Position numbers and translations under genes: made by a program. The notes below the pieces were generated by a model that was not told the origin of the DNA, ran no database searches, and saw only the letters and a program-made list of their open reading frames with translations. A stretch of 62,144 bases of DNA, the filler included, from Porpidia crustulata (lineage: Eukaryota), in the NCBI GenBank assembly GCA_964255105.1. It is 15 parts of 15 records of this genome, joined end to end, with 100 filler letters (N's around TTAATTAATTAA, not from the genome) between each part and the next. Parts side by side here need not be neighbours in the genome. Positions count along the whole stretch, not along the records: positions 45,730 to 49,760 come from CAXUWE010002167.1; 14 more parts are not named here. The stretch is one strand, 5' to 3'. Shown here piece by piece: positions 4,760 to 50,359 of this stretch. Position 1 is the stretch's first letter. Each line of letters starts with the position of its first letter.

Positions 4760-7700
4760 ATGGATTCTGAACTTCGATTACGGCCTTGCGCGCGCAAAGC
4801 ATGCGACGCTCGCCGTCGCCAATCTTCTACCGGGTCGTGCTGCGATGGTGAATTAATCATCTTTCTCGTTCGAAAGATTTGCGACTGATGATACTCAGAG
4901 CAGTGTCTTGATATCATCGCACAGGCTTCGACCAGCCAGGTCATCCACAATGATAGTAATGAGAACCAATCATCTCCCCACTCTGGACTCCAACATTCTC
5001 TGGCACAATGGAAAGCCGCTCTCGAGCGAGCAGAATGTCTCTGTGCAGAAATGCTCAACATGGGCCTACCTTCCTGCTGTACTACCCAGGTTTCGGAGCC
5101 GAATATGGCTGTGCCTCAGAAAAGGTTCTCGACCGCTACGGTTGAAAGCACCAAAACACAGAGGCCGGATGTCGTTCCTGGCCAGCAAAAACCATGTTGC
5201 AGCACAAGTGTAAACCGCAATGAATACCGCTCTCCTGACACCGCAGAAACAGGATGCTCCTCCGCACCTGACCCGAAGACCTGTTGCTCTTCCGCACGCG
5301 ATGCCAAGAGTCCGTGTCACGACAACCCAACGCCTACCCTGAGCATGGGTTGCGCTTCTACCCCGAGCATTCGAGCTTCCCAAGTGCATGGTGTCCAGTA
5401 CAGCCATCTTTCTAAAGATGGTAATCTCCTCGACGGCCACCAGAGCATCCCAACCCCTGCCATGGATCTTGAGAAAGGCTCTGCAACGGAACATGCTGTG
5501 ACTCAAATTTCAGGCATGACATGCTCTGGTTGCGAAAGAAAGCTGGAGCGTGTGCTCTCCAGCATTGCTGGCGTGCAAAATGTCAAAACTAGCCTTGTTC
5601 TGGGTAGAGCTGAATTTGATGTTGGTGCTGGATTTTCCGTTAAGGAAATCGCCTCATTATTGGAGAGACAGACCGAGTTCAAATGTACAGCATACCAAGA
5701 GGGTCACCAGCTCGAGGTACTTGTACCAAGCCTTCCATCGACTCAAGAGCCGAGACTTGGACCCACGGCGAGCTCCGAGAAAGACACGGCATTGCTTCAT
5801 CGAAATCTTACAGCTCCTAATTATCCACCTGGCGTGCAAGACGTTCAATTTGTTGACATTAATGGTCGAGAGTGGAAGTCCACCATCGCCAGAACTAGCA
5901 ACTGGCGTCATTCTCTCAGAACGTTTGCAGCCAAGCCTGAGAAGTACAGCGCGAGGATTACTTATGATCCTCGTATTGTGGGTGCTCGGGATTTGATGGA
6001 GAAAAGCTTTGGTGTTCCACTATCGCTCACGCCCCTCAGCTCAGATCACGCAAGTGCCACTGACGTTAGCCACCTTCGTGAGACTCTTTATATGACGTTG
6101 ATATCGGCATGCCTTACAATACCTGTTCTTGTCATGTCTTGGGCGCCATTACCGCCTCATACGGTAGCTTATGGATCTGCTTCGCTTGCACTGGCGACCC
6201 TAGTACAATTCATAGTTGCAGGCCCATTCTACCCCAAGGCCCTAAAGGCATTGGTATTTTCTCGGATGATTGAAATGGACCTCTTGATTGTGATCAGTAC
6301 TACTACAGCTTACGTCTATTCGGTGGTGGCTTTCGTCTGTGAGACCAAAGGCAAGCCATTATCTACAGGTGGCTTTTTCCAAACTAGCACTCTTTTAGTC
6401 ACGTTGATTATGTTTGGTCGTCTTGCAAGTGCGTATGCTCGTCGGAAAGCAGCAGAGTCGATTTCTATTCAGGCCTTACAATCGTCCACGGCCGTTCTGC
6501 TAGAAGGAACAAAAGAACGAATAATTGATGTACGCGAATTTCAGTACGGTGATCTCTTCAAGGTCCTGCCGGACTGTATCGTTCCTACAGATGGAATCAT
6601 AATGTCAGGGGAGACCGAGATTGATGAATCCATGATTACAGGTGAGGCAAACCCAGTACCCAAATTCTCCGACTCGAAGATTATAGCTGGCTCTGTCAAC
6701 GGGCCTGGCCCGATAGTAGCTCAATTATCTAAATTACCTATCGACAACACCCTCGGCAGGATCGCAAGCATGGTTGATGAAGCCAAGTTGTCGAAGCCGA
6801 AGGTCCAAGATACTGCTGATCGAGTCGCGTCTTACTTTGTGCCCTTTATCCTGGCTCTCACCGTTGTTGTTTTCTCTATCTGGATTGCAGTAGGGATTGC
6901 AGTAAGAAAAAAATCCCATGTAGATGCCATAGTCACTGCCATAACTTACGCACTCGCGGCACTGGTCGTGTCTTGTCCTTGTGCTATAGGACTAGCCGTG
7001 CCCATGGTCATGGTCATTGCAGGTGGAGTCGGGGCCAAACATGGCGTGATTTTCAAATCGCCTGGTGCTATCGAGAATGCTAGAAAGGCTACTCATGTTG
7101 TTTTTGATAAGACAGGTACTCTTACGCAGGGCAAATTCGTTGTGGTAGAGGAGGTATATCGCGAAGGGGGTCACACCAAAGCAATTTTCATAGCCAGACA
7201 ATTGGCCTCTAGTAGTAAGCATCCCGTCTCGCAGGCCCTGACGACGCACCTTGGTCTCTCTGAGAACAGTCCATTCAAAATAGAAGGCATCACTTCAGTA
7301 ATTGGGAAAGGCATGTGTGCCACGCTAGACGGACAGCTGATCAAAGGGGGTAACCCACTCTACATCGAGGCTGCCGCCGACCCCGATGTTCAACGTCTCC
7401 TATCTCAAGGACTGACAGTATTCTGCCTCCGTCTCGGCCCCGCTCTCCTAGCCATTTACGGCCTCCGCGACGCCCTCCGTCCCGACACCCCCTCCGTCAT
7501 TTCTAAACTGCAAGCCCAAGGCATCCTCGTCTCCGTCCTCAGCGGCGACTCCTCCACCGCAGTCGAAACCCTAGCAAACGACCTCGGCATCCCGCTCGCC
7601 CGCGCCAAAGGCCACTGCAGCCCAGAAGCCAAAGCGCGCTATCTCGCCTCGCTCTCTCGCGGCGTCCCAGGGCGCAAAAGTAAAGGGGCCGCGACTACAA

Positions 7701-8050
7701 CTTTGTTCTGCGGCGATGGCAGTAATGATGCCGTGGCCCTCGCTCAAGCGGACGTTGGCGTACATATGGCCGTAGGCACCGATGTAGCTAAGAGCGCTGC
7801 CGATGTCGTGCTCACGCATCCGTCGTTGACCGGGATCCTGGTGCTCCTGGATCTCTCCGCTGCGTCTATGCGCCGGGTGTACGTCAATTTCGTCTGGTCG
7901 TTTGTTTACAATCTTTTTGCCATTCTGCTGGCCGCGGGTGCTTTTGTGAAGGCGAGGGTTCCGCCGGCGTATGCGGGGCTTGGGGAGCTTGTCAGTGTGC
8001 TGCCGGTTGTTGGGGTGGCGATGCAGTTGCGGTGGATAAAGTTTCGTTGA
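4760..8050 (+). CDS. PCA1: Heavy-metal P1B-type ATPase, Pca1-like (Cd/Cu exporter); exons 4760-4847 and 4899-8050
   Basis: Cys-pair-rich N-terminus, HMA motif GMTCSGC, TGE, CPC, DKTGT, HP, GDGSND and C-terminal YAGLGELVSVLPV (Pca1-type). An upstream ATG at 4760 plus a 51-nt GT-AG intron restores frame into the 999-aa ORF. Confidence 0.9.
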
Positions 8051-8597
8051 GGAATTTGAGTGATGATTAATGATTTCTGATATCCTTCTGTCGATGTTTA
8101 TTCTTCTAAACACAACTCAACTCCCAATTTCCACAATTAATCTAAAATCAACTCTCCATTTCCCTCACCTCCCCACCTCCACCTCTCCATCCTCTCCACC
8201 TCTCCACCATATCAAATCTCAAACACATGAAAACACATGAAACCCCACACCCCACACCNNNNNNNNNNNNNNNNNNNNNNNNNNNNNNNNNNNNNNNNNN
8301 NNTTAATTAATTAANNNNNNNNNNNNNNNNNNNNNNNNNNNNNNNNNNNNNNNNNNNNGGTGAGAGTGGAGTCATACTGGCGGGGATTGGGATGGAGGTG
8401 TGGAAGGGTGGTGGGAAGTGAACCAGTTTCAATTTACCTTGCAATCATAAAAGAGAGGAACGCCCGAAGATCTGTCGACCATAAAGTTCAACCTCAATTC
8501 CTCAATCTAGTCAAAGTTATGGTACGATCTCCAGCTGCTTGCCCTTTCGAAAGTCTGGTATAAAGGTTTAGAAATCGTGATGGGATTTGCCGTGCCA

Positions 8598-8638
8598 TCA
8601 CGTGATCGTCGCGATAAAAAGAACACCTACCAACGCGT
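8598..8638 (+). promoter_or_regulatory. TCACGTGA E-box and ACGCGT (MCB-like) sites upstream of RAD2
   Basis: CACGTG at 8599-8604 and ACGCGT at 8633-8638, within 125 nt of the ATG. Short motifs, so function is unproven. Confidence 0.3.
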
Positions 8639-8721
8639 CATTATGCACGACAGCTAACAGAAGGTGAAATGTTGCGTGCTGGCTCTTTGCCTATACCAAG
8701 GGTGTATCAGCACCTTCTGAT

Positions 8722-11700
8722 ATGGGTGTTACAGGTCTTTGGACTGTTGTTCAGCCCTGCGCTCGTCCCATCAAACTCGAGACTCTGAACAAGAAGCGTC
8801 TGGCCATCGATGCCTCCATCTGGATATATCAGTTCCTCAAAGCTGTACGCGACAAAGAGGGCAATGCTCTTCGTAATTCTCATGTCGTAGGATTCTTCCG
8901 CCGTATCTGCAAGTTGCTTTTCTTCGGAATTAAGCCAGTCTTTGTGTTTGATGGTGGAGCACCAGTACTGAAGAGACAGACAGTCAGTGCAAGGAAGTCA
9001 AGAAGAGAAGGAAGGAGAGAAGATGCCGTTCGAACAGCTGGAAAGCTATTGGCGCTACAGATGCAGAGAAGAGCAGAAGAAGATGATCGGAAGAGGAGGG
9101 ACGAAAGGGATCGGCCTCCAGTTGAGGCAGCAGAGGAAGAGGTCCCAGATGATCTTGTTTACGTCGATGAGCTGCAAATGACCGCGCAGGAGCGGCAGCA
9201 GAATCGGAGATTCAAGAAGAAGGATGCGTACCATCTTCCACAGCTGGACGTTAGTCTAGAGGAGATGGGAGCACCGAACGATCCACGAATAATGAGTCAC
9301 GAAGAGCTAGAAGAATATGCAAGACAATTCCACACTGGTGAAGATGTTAACGTCTATGATTTCAGCAAGATTGACTTTAACAGTCCTTTCTTTTTAAGTC
9401 TACCTGCAAGTGACCGTTATAATATCCTCAATGCTGCGAGATTAAGGAGCCGGCTAAGGATGGGACATAGCAAGGAGCAATTGGATACTATGTTTCCTGA
9501 TAGGATGGCTTTCTCCAGGTTCCAGATTCAAAGGGTCGCTGAGAGGAACGAGCTTACACAAAGACTCATGAATCTTAACGGCATGAACGGAGAAGACGCG
9601 ATGTTTGGCGTGAACGGAGGGGGACGGATTGCAGGGGAGAAGGGAAGGGAATACGTCCTGGTCAAAAATGACGGTGTAGAAGGTGGATGGGCATTAGGTG
9701 TCGTAAGCAACAACGGTGAGGGAGGTAGAAATAAGCCTATCGATGTTGAAGGCCCAGGAAAGGACGACCTTACACAGGTAATTGAAGGTGATGAGTCAGA
9801 TGATGGTTTTGAAGATGTTCCAATTGAGGGCCTCAATAGATTACCAAAACGCTCCGCAGTCGGCACTGCTGGCCTCGATTTCGAAGATGATACCGGATCT
9901 CTAGACCTCATGGAGCGAAGGCGAGCCTTGTACGAAGCACGACAGGCAGCAGTAGGCATCGAAGTGCCGGGAAAGGCACTAGAAGTCAGCAATGCCAACG
10001 ATGAACGCGATTCGCTCTTTGTGCCCCAGGTTCTCGATGAAGTATCCGGTCAACAAGATGAAGAAGAAATGGATGGCTTATTCGAGGATGTTCCAACTGC
10101 AGCACCTGACGAGGACGAATATCTCAGTCGAGCCGTTGCTATGTCATTGGAACAACCTGAGCAAGATGACGATATGGGCGATGTGGCTTCAAGCGCCGCA
10201 AAGCCTAATAATGCAGCCCTGAAAACTCATAAGCGGCTGGAATTCAATCAGCGAAGTGCTCAGGCTGGCAGAGATGTCGCTCATCAATTTAATGCACGAG
10301 CGCATCGGGTCGCCCCTAAACCGTTTCTAGAGGACAGCGAGGATGAAGATGACCTCAACCTTCAAGCATCATTGGAAGACTCGAGATCTACCATGCATAA
10401 GTCTCAAGGGCCTCGAGGTTTCAGTCCACAGGTGATGAGTCCTAGAAAGCCTTCTCCCCTGCAAATTACCCCAATGCAGAAGACAACATTCAGTGGGCCA
10501 CTACCGTTCGAGTCGATCAATTTCGGCAAATCGGTACTAGGTAGGAAGAAGACCAAAGCAAAGGAGGAGGGAGAAGGGGGCTTCGAGAAAGAGCCGTCGC
10601 AGGCGGAGAAAGAACCTCAGCCGTTACCTCCTTGGTTCTCTAAAGACGTGCTTGAAGGCAATGCTTCTCAAAAGGCCTTCGAGGAGAAAGAATTGGAAAG
10701 CGTTGTTCCCAATTATAGCGCTCAGATGATCGAATATCAACACATCCTCAAGAGGCAGCAAACAGGAGAGATAATTGACCTCGACGTACCCGCTAGAACA
10801 ATCGATGATGTTATTGAAGTTGCCACCTCTAGCGATGAGCACGAGGATGATGATATTATAGAACAAAAAAAGCCAACTGACTCGGAGGTGAGGATGGGCG
10901 ATATCGCGGATCAAGTTCGCGCTGAACCCCCAATATCTGGATCACCTAACCATAATGATTGTCCATTAAAGGATAGCCGGGCCAACTTTCAAGTGACCTC
11001 CGTGGAGAGTCAACAAAGTAGCGAGGAGTCCATTGAATGGGAGGAGAGCGACCTGGAAAACGACCAAGCAAAGTACAATCCTATACTTAATACCCAGCAC
11101 CCCGCTGGCGGTATCATGCAGGCTCCACCATCGAAATCTCCCTCACCCGAGTTCGAGAACGTTGGAAATCTAGACTCGCCACTTCAACTTCCTATTAATG
11201 GTCCATCTCTCGATAGCCCAGAACGACCACCCCCACCGCTTCCTCAAGCAGTGTCGCTTGATCTGCCAGCCGAGGATTCTGACGCCTACTCTGATCCCGA
11301 AGATGAATATCTCATGCGTCAACTCGCCGCCGAAGCCTCTGAACATGCTCGTTTCGCCTCCACACTCTCGAATAATTCCCATCTCCACTCTGCTCAAGAT
11401 TACGAAACCGAACTTCGTCAACTCCGCAACCAACAGAAGAAGGATCGCCGTGATGCTGACGAGGTCTCACACATCATGATCACGGAATGCCAGCAGCTGC
11501 TCAAACTGTTCGGACTGCCCTACATCACAGCACCCATGGAGGCGGAGGCACAATGTGCGGAACTGGTGAATTTGGGCTTAGTAGATGGTATTATAACGGA
11601 CGATAGCGATATCTTCCTATTTGGAGGGACTAGGGTGTACAAGAATATGTTCAACCAAGCCAAATATGTTGAATGCTACCTTTCTTCCGATCTCGAGAAG

Positions 11701-21455: not shown

Positions 21456-22996
21456 ATGGCAGAAAATCTTCCTGTTGCCGACGTAGTCTCATGGGATGCA
21501 CAAAATGTTTTCGCTCGTTGTCCAATATGCGGCGGCCTTCACCGGCATGGAACAAGTGGCAGTTATTCCTCCACAAACACCAGGGCGGCACACTGCCCTC
21601 CAACCTTTGGCCTACCTCACCGGTACCAAATACGCTTCCCATTTGATACGACCACTCGAAGGGTGGCGTATTGGATCCATAAGGAAAGGAAGCGGTTCTT
21701 TACCGTTGGCGCAGAACCAGACCCGGAAGAAGTCTCTGAGCTGGCAGAACCACTAGAATCGCAACTTGATATCGGCAGTGGTGACGAATCCTTAATACTG
21801 CTGGAAAGTGGGATAGAAGAGAGGACGGTTTCGATCCAGATTGAGGGGAATGACCATATCTCTTGGACGGAAAAGACCATCGTTACAGCAGTAAGCAATA
21901 GTGTTCTTGGTGAAGAAAGAGAAATCAGAAGATTTCTTGCCACATCTGCCGACGCTGAAGTTCTGGTCATGGGAACACACTCCTGTCCATGGTGGCAGTG
22001 GAAAGGCATCCCTATATGGTAACCCTGTTTTTGGACCGCGGAGCCCGGATCAACAACCGAAACAACAAAGGGAGAACACCACTCATGGAGGCCGCCCTTT
22101 GGGGTAGGTTCGAAAACACTCAGATTCTCCTGGCGAGAGGGGCAGACAAGGAGGCCAAGGACAGAGAAGGCCGCAAGGCCATCGATTTTACATCGCAGAG
22201 CGATGTAAATGCCGAAGAGCGACATATACGCGCCGGTGGAGTTTACAAGGAAGATACATTTGTCGCGGACAAAGAACGAAAAACTATCGCTAGAGTGCTC
22301 CGCGGCACCGTGATATCCGCTCTTACGCTTGACCTCTCGACTCCGAAGAATTCGAGCTGCGAACATCATTCTTTCCACAACTCAAGTAGGACATCGGAGA
22401 TAGTTCTCTCTGCGCCTGTTGCCACTTTTCCTGTTCGAAGCCTGGCAAAAACGATTGCTCAACTTGTTCGTGGGAGTCCTTTCCCTCCAGTGGACGCGAT
22501 GAGTGGATGGGCCCATTATGACGAGCAGAACACCACTATCAGTGGCAAAAACTGGACGAATGAAGTCTTCGTCATATGCGAATCAATTGGGCACATCCTG
22601 GCGCCGGTTCCTGAGATCGATCAAGGGAGGCCGGGGAGGTGGCACGCATGTCATGCTGAGAAACAGTTGGTGGCGTTCTTCGTCGCTTACCATGTTTTTC
22701 TTAAGGATGAATTGCTGAATGAAGATGAGATCGAAGAAGAGAAAAGCAAGTACGAAGACGAGAATATCCTTCGTCCACTGAGAGGAGACATCACACAAGA
22801 ACAACACAATAGATGGCGGGAGCAAATGGAACGTAAAGAGGAGAGAAACTTGAAGGAACTCTACCTTGTCCGCCCACCAGTCACTCTACAGGAAGCAACA
22901 ATCCTAGTCAGTAGGGTGGTATGTGCTGACTGTGAGACTTTTGTCCGACAAGTAGAGTTAGTGCTTGGACTTTCATTTCGACTCCAGAGATGTTGA
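21456..22996 (+). pseudogene. Zn-finger + ankyrin repeat + DYW/SsdA-like deaminase, frameshifted at ~21966
   Basis: N-terminal CPICGGLHRHG...AAHC; ankyrin repeats GNTLLSMVAV and GRTPLMEAALWGRFENTQILLARGAD; deaminase motifs HACHAEKQL and SRVVCADC. Two overlapping ORFs (21453-22022, 21989-22996) in different frames. Confidence 0.8.
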
Positions 22997-45729: not shown

Positions 45730-46879
45730 GGAAGTCGGCGGCGTGCTCGGGGGCGTAGGCGGCTTTTTCGAAGGCGATGCTGGAATAGCGGTAGCCGGCG
45801 GCGCAGTACTGGGCCATGTAGGCGAAGCCGAAGCGGGGGAGGGAGAAGCTGGCGGCGGCGTATTGGGTGGTGTGTTTGGCTTCGTGCACGAGGGTCTGGA
45901 TGAATTGGGTGTAGGCGAAGGTGGGAAAGGCGGCGGGGGCGGAGATTTGGCGGTCGTCGGGCCCGTAGATGTCGCGGTTGAAGGTGATGGCGTGGTATTG
46001 GCCGAGGTTGAGGAATTTGCGGAGGTTGTAGTGTACGCGTAGGTTTTGGTCGAGGGGGAAGGTGCCGTAGATGGGGTGGAGGAAGAACATTTGGTCGGGC
46101 GAGATGCTGAGGCCGGGGGATGGGTTGCGTTCGTGTACGGAGGCTGCGGTGGTCAGGTAGCCGCCGACGGTGTTGTAGGCGAAGATGGAACAGAGTTGGT
46201 CGGTGGTTGCTTTGGCGAGCTTGTCGATGACCGGGGCGGACCCAGGAATGATTTTCTTCACCACATTGACGGCGTCCTTTATGCCGATACCGTTGAAGCA
46301 GCAGCCGCGCTTTGAGAGAGTGGTCTCATCGGAGGCGGTGGTGTTGGATTCCGCAAAGGAGGCAGTGGTTAGATCATCCCCTACGCTGTCGGATCGATTA
46401 AAGACGAGAAGGACGGCATCACTGAAGGCGGAAGACGTTTGTTCGATAGTGGAAGTGATGTTTTCTGGCGGAACATCTAATTGCTTCAGCACGGAAGGCT
46501 GGGCCAACGCGATACCATCAACGTTGGCGGTCGAAAGGTCCGTCGGGAGGCTGACAGGAACGTTAATGGCAATAGCCACATCACCAACCGAGCTGTTGTC
46601 CTTGATCTGGTACGTGTTGGGCTCTGACAAGTTCTGCAAAGTAGGAAGATACGACGTGCTGTTGTAAGTCGTGATGATACTGTCCAGAGTCTCTGTCAAA
46701 TTACTCCGAGAGGGCGCGAAAGAGGAAGATAATTGAGGTGGGCTACAGGAGAGGTCGGTCACAGTGACTGTAACGGTTACTGGCGAGTTGCTCGGTAGAG
46801 CAGCTGTTAGAGAGAAACTAATAAGTGCAAAGACAGCGGGTAGGAACCAAGCATGATTGATGAATCGAGGAGAAGCCAT
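45730..46879 (-). CDS. Secreted preproprotein with C-terminal HExxH (DUF4157-like) metallopeptidase-like domain, 3' partial
   Basis: Signal peptide MASPRFINHAWFLPAVFALISFSLTAALP, S/T-rich pro-region, Kex2-type LSKR, then HAITFNRDIY...LVHEAKHTTQY...FGFAY...IAFEKAAY. Intronless. Confidence 0.7.
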
Positions 46880-48880
46880 GACGAAAAGATGAGACTGAAA
46901 TCTATTCGAATGCAATGGTCTTGACTGATAAAGGAGACATGCTGTATATCAAGCATTCCAAGACGCTTGCGAAAGCAAGAATGAGCACGAGAGAAACGCT
47001 TTTGGCAGTAGTAAGGCCGAGCCACTCACTTGGACGATGAAATCAGCTCATTGTTTACCAAAGGCTTCATATGCCAAGTTGAGCTTCAACCGACAGAGTC
47101 TGGTGGGCTGCCCATGGGCACGGATTGGGACAAGTAAACGGCCCTAGCTGATTGGGCAGTTCTAAAAGCGAAGAACTTCCTTATGATGCCCTCTAGCGCC
47201 GAAGTCTCGGGTTCCCAAGGCTGAGGTCAGGAGCTCAGCCCTCGCTACCAAAGCTGGATACCAAGAAGTATTGAGACTTTATGCTTATTATCAAGCTTTG
47301 GTGAGAACTGAGACGCTAGACATAACCCGGAAGGATTTAGCGGAGGGGCTGGCATTATTTTTTTGGGACGAAGTAATTGCATTGCGTCTTTTCCTCATGT
47401 TCTGAACGTCCAAGACGAAGGCACTCGGATCTGTTGGTGTTGGCGCTTGTGTCTTGTGCTTGTTGCTTCAAGTGAATGGCGCTTTCTAGGTGAAGCATCT
47501 GCAACAGAGGGCCATAATGATGCCGCGGGTCAACTATAATATCAACAGAGCCCAAATGTTTGAATCGAGGATCGAAGAGTGACGAGGCATAGTACGAATA
47601 ATGCCAATCAAGACTATGATATTATTGCTCTGAAAATTGCAATGGCTATGCTGAACATGGGTATGGCTTGCTGAGAGCATGAGACTAAGCCTATACACAT
47701 TCAGAGAGGTTCGACAGAAAGAAGAATCATGATAGTATGACAGTCAGAGAGCTATGGGGTCAGTAAGTTGTGGAGGTCGAGGCCTGAAAATAGGAAATAA
47801 GGCTCCGCCAAGGGGACGCTAGTCCCGTTCAGGCTCAAGAATTTCATCCAGTTCAATTTCTCCGCTCTCCTCCCGTCCGCTGTGAGCTGCCAAGCATTCC
47901 TGTATGCAAATCCTAGAGCCGCCAAGTAATCAATAAGGCGCCCGTCTTGACAGTGAGAAGAAGAAAGCCCGGGCAAAGGAGACGGTAACCTCATTAGTCA
48001 TAACCCTTTCACTCTTTGGTGCTCCATACCTACTCACTCAGTCTACTGGGGCTGTGGGACTTGGCGACGCCATGAATTGGCAAACGAGGGCGCTTCTAGC
48101 TGGTCATCGCACCCGACAACCTCAACCTCCGCCCTACACACTGGGATACTGTTCCTCCCCACCTACCCGAGGCTCAAGGGCTAAGGGCTGGAAATGAGAT
48201 GAGTGGATGCACTTACATAGCGACAATACTGAGCAGTTGATACGAATCCCACATCCTCTCCGCCTGCCCTTTGCGACCCGTAACGAACCCAGAGATTTCA
48301 ATATCGTTACAGTTCTACGTAGATGCATGCTTATCCAAGGTCCAATATCTTTCATCGGTAAATCATCTTTGGAGCTTTCGATGGATTTTTTGTTGCCTTT
48401 TTCAACGCTTCTATCGGTGGAGTTGAGCAGACTCTGTTTTCTGTCTTTTCGTTCAAACGTTTTAGATGTTGGTACTTGAGATGAAACTAAGACCGTGGAT
48501 CCCTAACAACTATTTGCAAGATGGTATTCCTACTTCAGGCTGCTACTCACAATCGTGCCTAAATCGCCCCTTGACGTATTACAGTTCTTCATTATGCTTT
48601 TCTCGTAATACTTCTCGCACGACATGCATTGTTCGATCATGTGTAAAGTCATTGGTTAGGCATCGAATGCCGTTCCGTCGCGCATTGTCCTCACGCAGGT
48701 TTCCCCATTCTCCCGCATGCAAAATTATAAAGACCACATGTTCATAGGTAGGCGTTCAATGTTCACGATAATAATCTCCGAGAATGACCACATCATCGTC
48801 ATGTCGATGAATCCCAAGATTCCCCAACTCGCTGGTGAGAGCGGCAATCTCAAAATCATCGTTCAACTCAACCCTCCACC

Positions 48881-49760
48881 ATGAGAATCGCTCAAGTCTC
48901 TCCCCTCTTCGAGGCCGTCCCACCCAAATTCTACGGAGGAACAGAGCGAGTTGTATCCCATCTCACGGAAGCTCTGGTGGAGCTTGGTCATGATATTACC
49001 ATCTTTGCCAGCGGCGACAGCATCACCAAAGCCAATCTCATCGCTCCATGGCCACAAGCCACTCGGCTTGACCCTTCCATCAACGAAACCCTAACGCCGG
49101 AAATCATGCAATTGGAGATGCTCGCAGTCCATGCCAAGGAATTCGACATTATCCATCTCCACACCGGATTTTTAGCAATACCTCTGCTGAAACGACTGGG
49201 TATACCGTTACTTCTAACGCTACATTCCCCCATGAACCCCGCAGAAGTCCAGGGACTGCTGCAAATATTCCATGATGTACCTCTCGTCTCTATTTCAGAT
49301 TCTCAGCGGCAGCATAATCCAACCGCAAACTACATCAAGACAATCCCGCACGGACTTCCACCCGACCTCCTGCCTCTGGGAAGTGGCAGCGGCGACTATC
49401 TCGCATTCCTCGGCCGCATCTCCCCCGAAAAAGGCCCAGACGCCGCCATTTGTATCGCCGCGCGCGCCGGGAAGAAGCTCATCATCGCAGCAAAAATCGA
49501 TGCCTACGATCAAGCGTACTTTGACAAAACCATTAAACCCCTCCTGAGCCTGCCTCACGTCGACTACATCGGCGAGATCAACGACTCACAGAAAGCCTCC
49601 TTCCTCGGCAATGCCGCCGCGCTGCTGTTCCCGATCGCCTGGCCCGAGCCGTTCGGCCTCGTGATGATCGAAGCGATGATGTGCGGCACCCCCACGATCG
49701 CCATGGGTCTGGGCGCGGTGCCGGAGGTGATTGAGCATGGGGTCACGGGGTATGTGGTTC
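48881..49760 (+). CDS. GT4 (GT-B) glycosyltransferase of bacterial AviGT4-like type, 3' partial
   Basis: MRIAQVSPLFEAVPPKFYGGTERVV...LGHDITIFASGDS, YLAFLGRISPEKG, LLFPIAWPEPFGLVMIEAMMCGTP (EX7E motif). Intronless. Confidence 0.9.
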
Positions 49761-50359
49761 NNNNNNNNNNNNNNNNNNNNNNNNNNNNNNNNNNNNNNNN
49801 NNNNTTAATTAATTAANNNNNNNNNNNNNNNNNNNNNNNNNNNNNNNNNNNNNNNNNNNNTTCGTTTTCGCTAAATTCAAAAATCGGCCATACCAATTTG
49901 CACACAGCGATATATGCGCATATCAGAGTTCCGCTCCGCTGAAAAGTCTTGGCATTTGTTTCAGCAATGTCTATGTACGTGTAGGAGCAATTCAGAATGT
50001 CAAAAACGTGAACACTATTCCTGGGCACAATCACGATACTCTGAAGCCTATTGAATAGTTGTTCAAGCACAGCGCTGCGTCTGAGCACAGCCTTAAGCCG
50101 CATGGATATCTCAGTTGTCTCATTGTCATCCTCCCTCAGATAGCTGAAAGCGCTACGCCTTCGGTGACCTCGAACGCCAGATCTCAATATTCAACTATTT
50201 ACACTTGACTCATACTAAGTTCCTGGTCCAGCTCTTGAGAACCTTGCACTGGCGACTTGTGGAATACGAAGGTCGTGCTCTGTTTATTGATCGAGTCTCT
50301 GAGGGGTAGTTCTCCAATTGACTAATTTCAAATGGTCTACTTTCTCCCCTCACATTTCC

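Follow-up and report, generated by a model that had tools for sequence, protein, structure and literature searches.

How did a glycosyltransferase gene of bacterial type come to lie in the DNA of a fungus? The question is raised by a contig of the Porpidia crustulata genome (assembly GCA_964255105.1), where an open reading frame (ORF) at positions 48881-49760 encodes a protein of glycosyltransferase family 4 (GT4). All positions refer to the window, that is, the whole stretch of DNA that was analysed. It is 62,144 bases long and consists of 15 assembly contigs arranged in descending order of length, from 4,087 down to 4,027 bp; the GT4-bearing contig (45730-49760) comprises 4,031 bp. According to the original prediction, the gene was transferred from a bacterium and has since been ameliorated. 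This is supported by the bacterial nearest relatives of the protein, by the moderately supported nesting of the fungal copies among proteobacterial sequences, and by the host-like base composition at third codon positions (GC3). It is very probable that a bacterial GT4 gene was acquired horizontally by a fungus.

The ORF lies on the plus strand. It starts with the ATG at 48881, begins MRIAQVSPLFEAVPPKFYGGTERVV and is free of stop codons through the final base of the contig, which gives 293 codons. Relatives are 342 residues long, and approximately 50 codons of the 3' end are missing because the contig ends there. Residues 1-293 align to bacterial proteins without gaps, and hence there is no intron in the part of the gene that is seen. 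The start codon is set in the context ctccaccATGaga (ctccaccATG), and there is no AGGAGG-like Shine-Dalgarno site in the 20 bases upstream. Thus the intronless frame and the CACC-ATG context lacking a Shine-Dalgarno site, both described in the original prediction, are as claimed.

The translated sequence contains two Pfam domains. PF13439 (Glyco_transf_4) covers residues 18-119 with E = 6.3e-14 and 52.8 bits against a curated cut-off of 28.5. PF00534 (Glycos_transf_1) covers residues 173-293 with E = 3.3e-20 and 72.8 bits against a cut-off of 26.4, and is truncated by the end of the contig. The E-x7-E motif in the C-terminal domain is a hallmark of GT4 enzymes. In the window protein it is intact (E256-PFGLVMI-E264), and both glutamates are invariant in two homologue alignments; the surrounding residues 254-266 are WPEPFGLVMIEAM. 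These matches, together with the homologues, confirm the assignment of 48881-49760 to a GT4 glycosyltransferase, predicted to be of the retaining type and to have the GT-B fold.

The closest relatives are few. In the protein search 8,000 matches were scored and the best 120 were inspected. Two clusters stand out among these 120, P0003 with 78% and P0004 with 75% identity to the window protein; below them there are more than 100 proteins of bacterial type at 61-67%. The P0004 cluster has 29 members, from contigs of up to 618 kb. One sequence inside it, P0136, is only 91.8% identical to the remaining members, which brings the number of fungal-type versions to at least four (the window copy, P0003, P0136 and the P0004 group). 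These four were found among the best 120 hits and the clusters, no fungal genome collection having been searched directly. Identity of the fungal copies to the window protein is 74-78%, and among themselves 74-84%. A search of the ESM Atlas with the window protein returned only generic bacterial GT4 clusters and was uninformative as to origin.

The genomic setting of such copies was seen in metagenomes. When metagenomes were scanned with patterns that single out the 75-78% group, six loci (L081-L086) were obtained at 74-75% identity, the next best match being at 38%. They come from six assemblies of rock-dwelling Antarctic communities, as described in the available part of PMC7171226. The six loci are syntenic on both sides of the GT4 gene, and their flanks are 93-98% identical. 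One of them, L084, is found on a contig of 232 kb, where the GT4 gene is flanked by genes for a eukaryotic aspartyl protease, a kynurenine-3-monooxygenase-type protein, a zinc dehydrogenase, a TLC-domain protein and a methionine aminopeptidase, the last two being each divided into two ORFs. Since the genes around it are eukaryotic and intron-split, the closest relatives of the window GT4 sit in fungal chromosomes: these copies are physically embedded in fungal chromosomal DNA. A separate feature of L084 is a 2.5-kb block of short tandem repeats (6980-9514 of that locus) just upstream of the GT4 gene, with long repetitive ORFs in several frames. The block is absent from the other five syntenic loci.

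The window contig itself is assigned to the fungus by its architecture, with a 2-kb non-coding spacer and a neighbour gene that resembles no bacterial family, and by its tetranucleotide (4-mer) profile and a spanning contig from a different assembler. The other contigs of the window encode Sec6, XPG, MutS split over separate ORFs, a PCA1-type ATPase and HAM1-like genes. The Sec6 protein matches dozens of named lichen fungi, and is 70-78% identical to its counterparts in named lichen-forming Lecanoromycetes. The GT4 contig lies at a 4-mer distance of 0.0195 from the centroid of the other 14 window contigs, for which the leave-one-out range is 0.0164-0.0224. Its distance to the centroid of the 80 bacterial loci described below is 0.0645, and the single bacterial locus closest to the window centroid is at 0.0392. 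Thus the contig does not bin with bacteria. The window GT4 has a GC3 of 0.64, the metagenome copies have 0.54 and the other long ORFs of the window 0.44-0.74, as compared with 0.59-0.94 in the 80 bacterial genes. Finally, a Logan contig made by a second assembler from the same data set covers 46203-49750 without a single difference. It joins the 5' end of the neighbouring gene, the spacer and the GT4 gene, which argues against a chimera made by the assembler.

These data bear on the possibility that the contig derives from a bacterial contaminant, or that a bacterial gene was joined to fungal DNA in a chimeric assembly. There is some ground for such a suspicion: the assembly is highly fragmented, with contigs of 4 kb, the only run holding the sequence amounts to 111 million letters, the GC content of the GT4 contig (0.517) is the highest among the 15 contigs, and Alphaproteobacteria are plentiful in lichen and rock samples. 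However, both GC3 and the 4-mer profile match the host and not the bacterial homologs. The best bacterial identity is only 63-67%, yet there is 75% identity at the DNA level to a gene embedded in fungal contigs, and a contaminant would not be expected to be so remote from all 185,579 reference species of the prokaryote scan. In addition to the spanning contig, a related copy occupies one syntenic fungal locus in six independent assemblies. Contamination or chimerism is thus extremely improbable.

The bacterial side of the family was sampled by a scan of prokaryotes with one genome per species, 185,579 species in total; 80 loci were kept. Among 602 pattern matches, 597 encode a relative, with the best identity 63%. 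All 80 kept loci are bacterial, mostly from Alpha- and Betaproteobacteria. They include uncultured Alphaproteobacteria, Rhodospirillales, Stellaceae, Burkholderiaceae (Caballeronia, Paraburkholderia) and Nevskiaceae. For the nearest non-fungal relatives, identity to the window protein is 57-63% in those from named genomes and reaches 67% in metagenome proteins. When the family is clustered at 50%, none of the representatives is a fungal copy; the closest of them is at 63%, and its cluster includes a protein from Steroidobacteraceae. Outside a few fungi, the relatives nearest to the window gene are thus those of soil proteobacteria, in line with the original prediction. The proteobacterial proteins, uncharacterised and annotated only as 'glycosyltransferase family 4 protein', align to the window GT4 over the full length without gaps. 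Their genes stand in dense gene arrays, and the C-terminus of the fungal copies is shorter than theirs.

The phylogeny was reconstructed twice by maximum likelihood (ML). A quick tree was built from 75 rows, namely 4 fungal sequences, 36 named bacterial loci, 16 unnamed top hits and 19 representatives of the 50% clusters. Here the fungal rows form one clade (support 96 in the SH-like approximate likelihood ratio test, SH-aLRT). A singleton protein, P0146, is its sister (93), and both are placed within a proteobacterial group of 54 rows (94). For a careful tree of 68 rows, 7 of the 10 flagged long rows were dropped, while P0146 and four other flagged rows were retained. In this tree the support is 98/95 for the fungal clade, 99/95 for this clade together with P0146, and 99/87 for a set of 31 rows that unites the fungal clade with Alpha-, Beta- and Gammaproteobacteria. 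In the second of two approximately unbiased (AU) tests, a tree keeping the 31 named Pseudomonadota apart from the fungi was rejected (p = 0.017). Thus the ML phylogeny, suggested as a check in the original prediction, joins the fungal clade to proteobacteria.

Several observations weigh against a bacterial transfer into this genome. Firstly, in the first AU test, for which the quick tree with its long-branch rows was used, the fungi could be placed outside the named proteobacteria without rejection (p = 0.165); in the alternative of that test, the 31 named Pseudomonadota were grouped without the fungi and the deep representatives. Secondly, the group for the second AU test was chosen after inspection of the tree. 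Thirdly, the trees consist for the most part of metagenome proteins without a named source, which are taken to be bacterial. As to the window contig, none of its genes has a proven intron, a universal fungal marker is absent from it, and its tie to the rest of the assembly is through composition and relatives. The neighbourhood of the window copy differs from that of the six metagenome loci, none of which has a homolog of the adjacent window gene, P0002, within 10 kb. Finally, the 3' end of the GT4 gene lies beyond the contig. As the p-value was 0.165 at first, and then 0.017 with a group defined post hoc, the nesting of the fungal clade among proteobacterial sequences is supported moderately, not decisively.

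A larger FastTree phylogeny comprised 293 rows of the family, all those of suitable length. Its fungal clade consists of the window protein and the representatives of P0003 and P0004, with one unplaced singleton as its sister, and no further sequence belongs to it. Broadly distributed fungal homologs were seen neither in this tree nor among the best 120 of the 8,000 hits. The fungal copies have two derived residues in common, A267M/I and V272T/S, in columns that are 96-97% conserved elsewhere. This fits one acquisition.

The sister protein P0146 deserves a separate mention. It is 345 residues long, comes from one Logan contig of 2,174 bp, has a long branch and is 54% identical to the window protein. 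It has the motifs MMCGTP and RFSS in common with the fungal clade. This protein could belong to a further eukaryotic holder of the gene or to a relative of the donor.

One can ask whether the gene might instead be an old eukaryotic or fungal one, inherited vertically and lost in most lineages, with no bacterial transfer at all. The fungal copies do form one clade, with 74-84% mutual identity and synonymous divergence (dS) above 1. Moreover, the divergence of the copies is about that of Sec6 among lichen fungi (70-78%), and therefore the gene is not recent in fungi. However, the fungal copies are 63-67% identical to one proteobacterial subgroup, which is itself only 40-56% identical to other bacterial branches. 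The branch with support 99/87 unites the fungal copies with a part of the proteobacteria against the rest, the 293 rows of the family hold no other sequence of fungal type, and the gene is free of introns. Purely vertical descent is highly improbable against these data.

In the preferred scenario of horizontal acquisition, the bacterial GT4 gene would have been received by an ancestor of a few lichen-type ascomycetes, the donor being likely a proteobacterium or a close relative of one. Afterwards the gene would have been resident in fungal chromosomes, intron-free, with a eukaryotic start context and host-like composition, and maintained by purifying selection.

The latter is seen in the comparison of copies. 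The window copy and the metagenome copies are separated by dS of 1.1-1.2, and the ratio of nonsynonymous to synonymous divergence (dN/dS) is 0.13-0.14; therefore the gene was kept under selection since the divergence of these fungi. In 290 non-fungal relatives, 83 columns show conservation of 90% or more; of these, 78 are retained in the window protein and 79 in each of the other two fungal proteins.

The same divergence is relevant to how the gene reached the window lineage. It might have spread from fungus to fungus after a single bacterial acquisition, so that the window lineage received it from another fungus. The distribution does appear patchy, with four GT4 versions found among the best 120 hits and their clusters as compared with dozens of named Lecanoromycetes for Sec6, and the difference of neighbourhoods mentioned above points the same way. 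However, dS of 1.1-1.2 and 75% protein identity are close to the divergence of housekeeping genes within the class, and this fits descent with losses. Moreover, no mobile element was seen flanking the GT4 gene on the window contig or at L084. Overall, such secondary spread seems unlikely.

One short stretch of the window protein is anomalous. At codons 115-120 (49223-49240) it has HSPMNP where all close relatives have HGR(V/L)DL. The difference amounts to nine base substitutions over five adjacent codons, the length being unchanged. A compensated frameshift was considered as the cause and is ruled out by this pattern of substitutions. The stretch may mark a changed acceptor pocket. It could also be taken as a sign that the window copy is a decaying relic with no active enzyme, since it loses the cavity residue Arg117 and Asp119 (conserved in 92% of relatives), and the 3' end of the gene is out of sight. 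However, a relic would hardly be expected to keep 293 codons with neither a stop nor a frameshift, dN/dS of 0.14 and nearly the same set of conserved columns as the other fungal copies (78 versus 79 of 83), nor would it have the UDP-binding and catalytic residues intact. We consider decay very unlikely.

What could the enzyme do? The nearest solved structures (7FG9, 7FGA, 8X3Q, 8X3U) are those of the glucosylsucrose synthase TeGSS from Thermosynechococcus elongatus, which is also the closest enzyme to have been characterised. Residues 1-292 of the window protein match chain residues 4-295 (7fg9/8x3q) with E = 1.8e-78 and approximately 48% identity, as counted from the alignment. The full-length relative P0004 matches TeGSS over 1-339 with E = 9e-91. 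The original prediction had called the enzyme proteobacterial and AviGT4-like, the latter label being presumably a name from a domain database. AviGT4 of Streptomyces viridochromogenes (PDB 2IUY, 342 residues) does belong to the same GT4 superfamily and matches residues 10-285, but it is only a distant relative (E = 3.6e-16). The proteobacterial part of the description stands, whereas for the family the label 'TeGSS-like' appears better on these scores and should replace 'AviGT4-like'.

The similarity to TeGSS extends to the active site. In TeGSS, Tyr18, Arg179, Lys184 and Glu256 hold the diphosphate of uridine diphosphate (UDP), and the mutants Y18F and R179A are nearly inactive, according to the available part of PMC9909042. 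All four residues are present in the window protein with the same numbering, and they are invariant in the homologue alignment. TeGSS is of the same length class (342-345 residues) and has the same N-terminus, MRIAQV..PL.E.VPP..YGG, as the window GT4. Its Glu74, Trp254 and E-x7-E motif are retained as well. The encoded enzyme, with its predicted GT-B fold, would transfer glucose from UDP-glucose onto an acceptor that is a soluble sugar or resembles one. That the window GT4 is in fact a retaining, UDP-glucose-dependent alpha-glucosyltransferase acting on a soluble acceptor has, in our estimate from the conserved residues, roughly an even chance.

The acceptor side is less similar, and here a number of differences count against a function identical to that of TeGSS. 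Trp10, which stacks on the fructose of sucrose in TeGSS, is Phe in the window protein. The cavity residues Tyr70, Tyr97 and Arg117 are changed to Thr, Phe and Pro, respectively; further changes in the cavity are Thr119 to Asn and Asn122, which is aligned to Val. The glycoside hydrolase and exporter genes that accompany many of the bacterial homologs, described below, are absent from the fungal loci. Because the residues contacting sucrose or lining the cavity are changed, the acceptor may differ from sucrose, and sucrose itself seems the less likely substrate. The TeGSS gene, tll1591, adjoins tll1590 encoding sucrose-phosphate synthase. No sucrose-phosphate synthase was seen among the ORFs of the window contig or among the ORFs of at least 120 residues within 10 kb at L084, six of which were scanned against Pfam, although no dedicated search for this enzyme was made.

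The bacterial loci provide another hint of function. Within 4 kb of the GT4 gene, a GDE_N_bis/MGH1-like glycoside hydrolase is encoded in 23 of the 80 loci, and a fused ATP-binding cassette (ABC) exporter in 38; both are found in 7 loci and neither in 26. The partner families were named from ten bacterial loci analysed by ORF, 16 neighbouring ORFs being scanned against Pfam; in place of sucrose-phosphate synthase, these showed a hydrolase or an ABC exporter. Two distant relatives, L087 and L088, which are 34-35% identical to P0004 and 35-38% identical to the window protein, also adjoin such a hydrolase. The pairing of GT4 and hydrolase suggests that one oligosaccharide is made and broken. To judge from gene content, the genes appear to form a module, as yet uncharacterised, by which an oligosaccharide is synthesised, degraded and exported. 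In the fungi, the product may be an oligosaccharide protecting against drying or cold.

A bolder version of this idea would make a few ascomycetes of rocks and lichens the holders of the first eukaryotic members of the glucosylsucrose synthase family. The enzymes would use sucrose or a fungal or algal sugar alcohol, and would form alpha-glucoside oligosaccharides as protectants against drying and freezing. This is rather doubtful. If it is true, selection to retain the gene in endolithic fungi of Antarctica would reflect the adaptive passing of a stress trait from one partner of the lichen community to another.

The remainder of the contig is occupied by a spacer and one more gene. The spacer between the two divergent start codons (46880-48880) is 2,001 bp long and includes the CACC-ATG start context of the GT4 gene. 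Its GC content is 0.473 and it contains only ORFs of at most 93 codons, and thus the 2 kb of non-coding DNA upstream of the gene, as originally described, is real. The promoters of both genes presumably lie in this region. A scan of the contig 45730-49760 for transfer RNA genes and repeats found no transfer RNA and no long or notable repeats.

The divergent neighbour, P0002, lies on the minus strand at 45730-46879. The contig start cuts off its 3' end, so that 383 residues of its translation are seen. The protein is lineage-restricted and probably secreted; its N-terminus resembles a signal peptide, N-x-S/T sites are numerous, and there is a HEAKH motif resembling HExxH. A scan against Pfam, NCBIfam and PDB gave no family match, and among 5.8 billion proteins there is a single homologous cluster (P0142, 74%). 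The 3' half of the gene is markedly G+C-rich and has low depth in the contigs of the second assembler. The homolog P0142 and the GT4 protein P0136 come from the same source, and the longest contig for each is 12,798 bp; hence they may share one contig. If they do, the pair of GT4 and neighbour genes is conserved in another fungus.

The original prediction had also invoked a switch of GC skew held to be the same as in the fungal contigs. On the contig 45730-49760 the plus-strand skew does change sign, from +0.2 to -0.16, since each of the two divergent genes is rich in C on its coding strand (-0.18 and -0.35). However, the coding-strand skew of the other 14 long ORFs of the window ranges from -0.42 to +0.19, and therefore the switch is no general signature of the assembly and makes a weak argument.

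Two further features belong to the window at large. The GT4 contig is followed at 49761-49860 by an artificial spacer (a run of N, TTAATTAATTAA and another run of N), which is non-biological and separates assembly contigs. As all such spacers are artificial, any feature that seems to span one of them, such as the end of the GT4 ORF listed at 49816, is an artefact. On another contig of fungal type, the plus-strand ORF 21989-22996 encodes a protein of 335 residues with ankyrin repeats and the domain PF24120, SsdA_C (E = 1.8e-21). SsdA_C forms the C-terminus of a bacterial toxin that deaminates single-strand DNA. This domain may be a second inter-domain acquisition.

The GT4 gene can be compared with the transfers already catalogued in fungi. 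In 829 fungal genomes, 20,093 prokaryote-derived genes have been reported, with a median of 13 per Lecanoromycetes genome; 56% of the catalogued transfers are intron-free, the mean identity to the donor is 46%, and they are under purifying selection (available part of PMC11708051). As many transfers from bacteria to fungi have been catalogued before, the event itself is unsurprising. Among the catalogue rows listed in that part, only two have a 'glycosyltransferase family 4' protein as the best hit, from Hassallia (22.6%) and Yersinia (41%), and neither is of the TeGSS-like family (PMC11708051). We found no paper describing this GT4 transfer in the literature on horizontal transfer in fungi and lichens, glucosylsucrose and GT4. 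Like the catalogued transfers (available part of PMC11708051), the window GT4 is a metabolic enzyme gene, intron-free and under purifying selection, but its identity to bacterial proteins, 63-67%, is well above the catalogue mean. With this high identity, with syntenic copies in several independent assemblies and with clear purifying selection, the case is unusually clean.

The comparison with TeGSS gives the transfer its possible meaning. The host of TeGSS is a cyanobacterium, whereas the host of the window GT4 is a fungus. The only characterised member of the family makes stress-protective sugars in cyanobacteria. If the product of the fungal enzyme is comparable, this would point to a borrowed route by which lichen fungi tolerate desiccation or cold, and their enzyme would be an alpha-glucosyltransferase already adapted to a eukaryote and suitable for the production of rare oligosaccharides.

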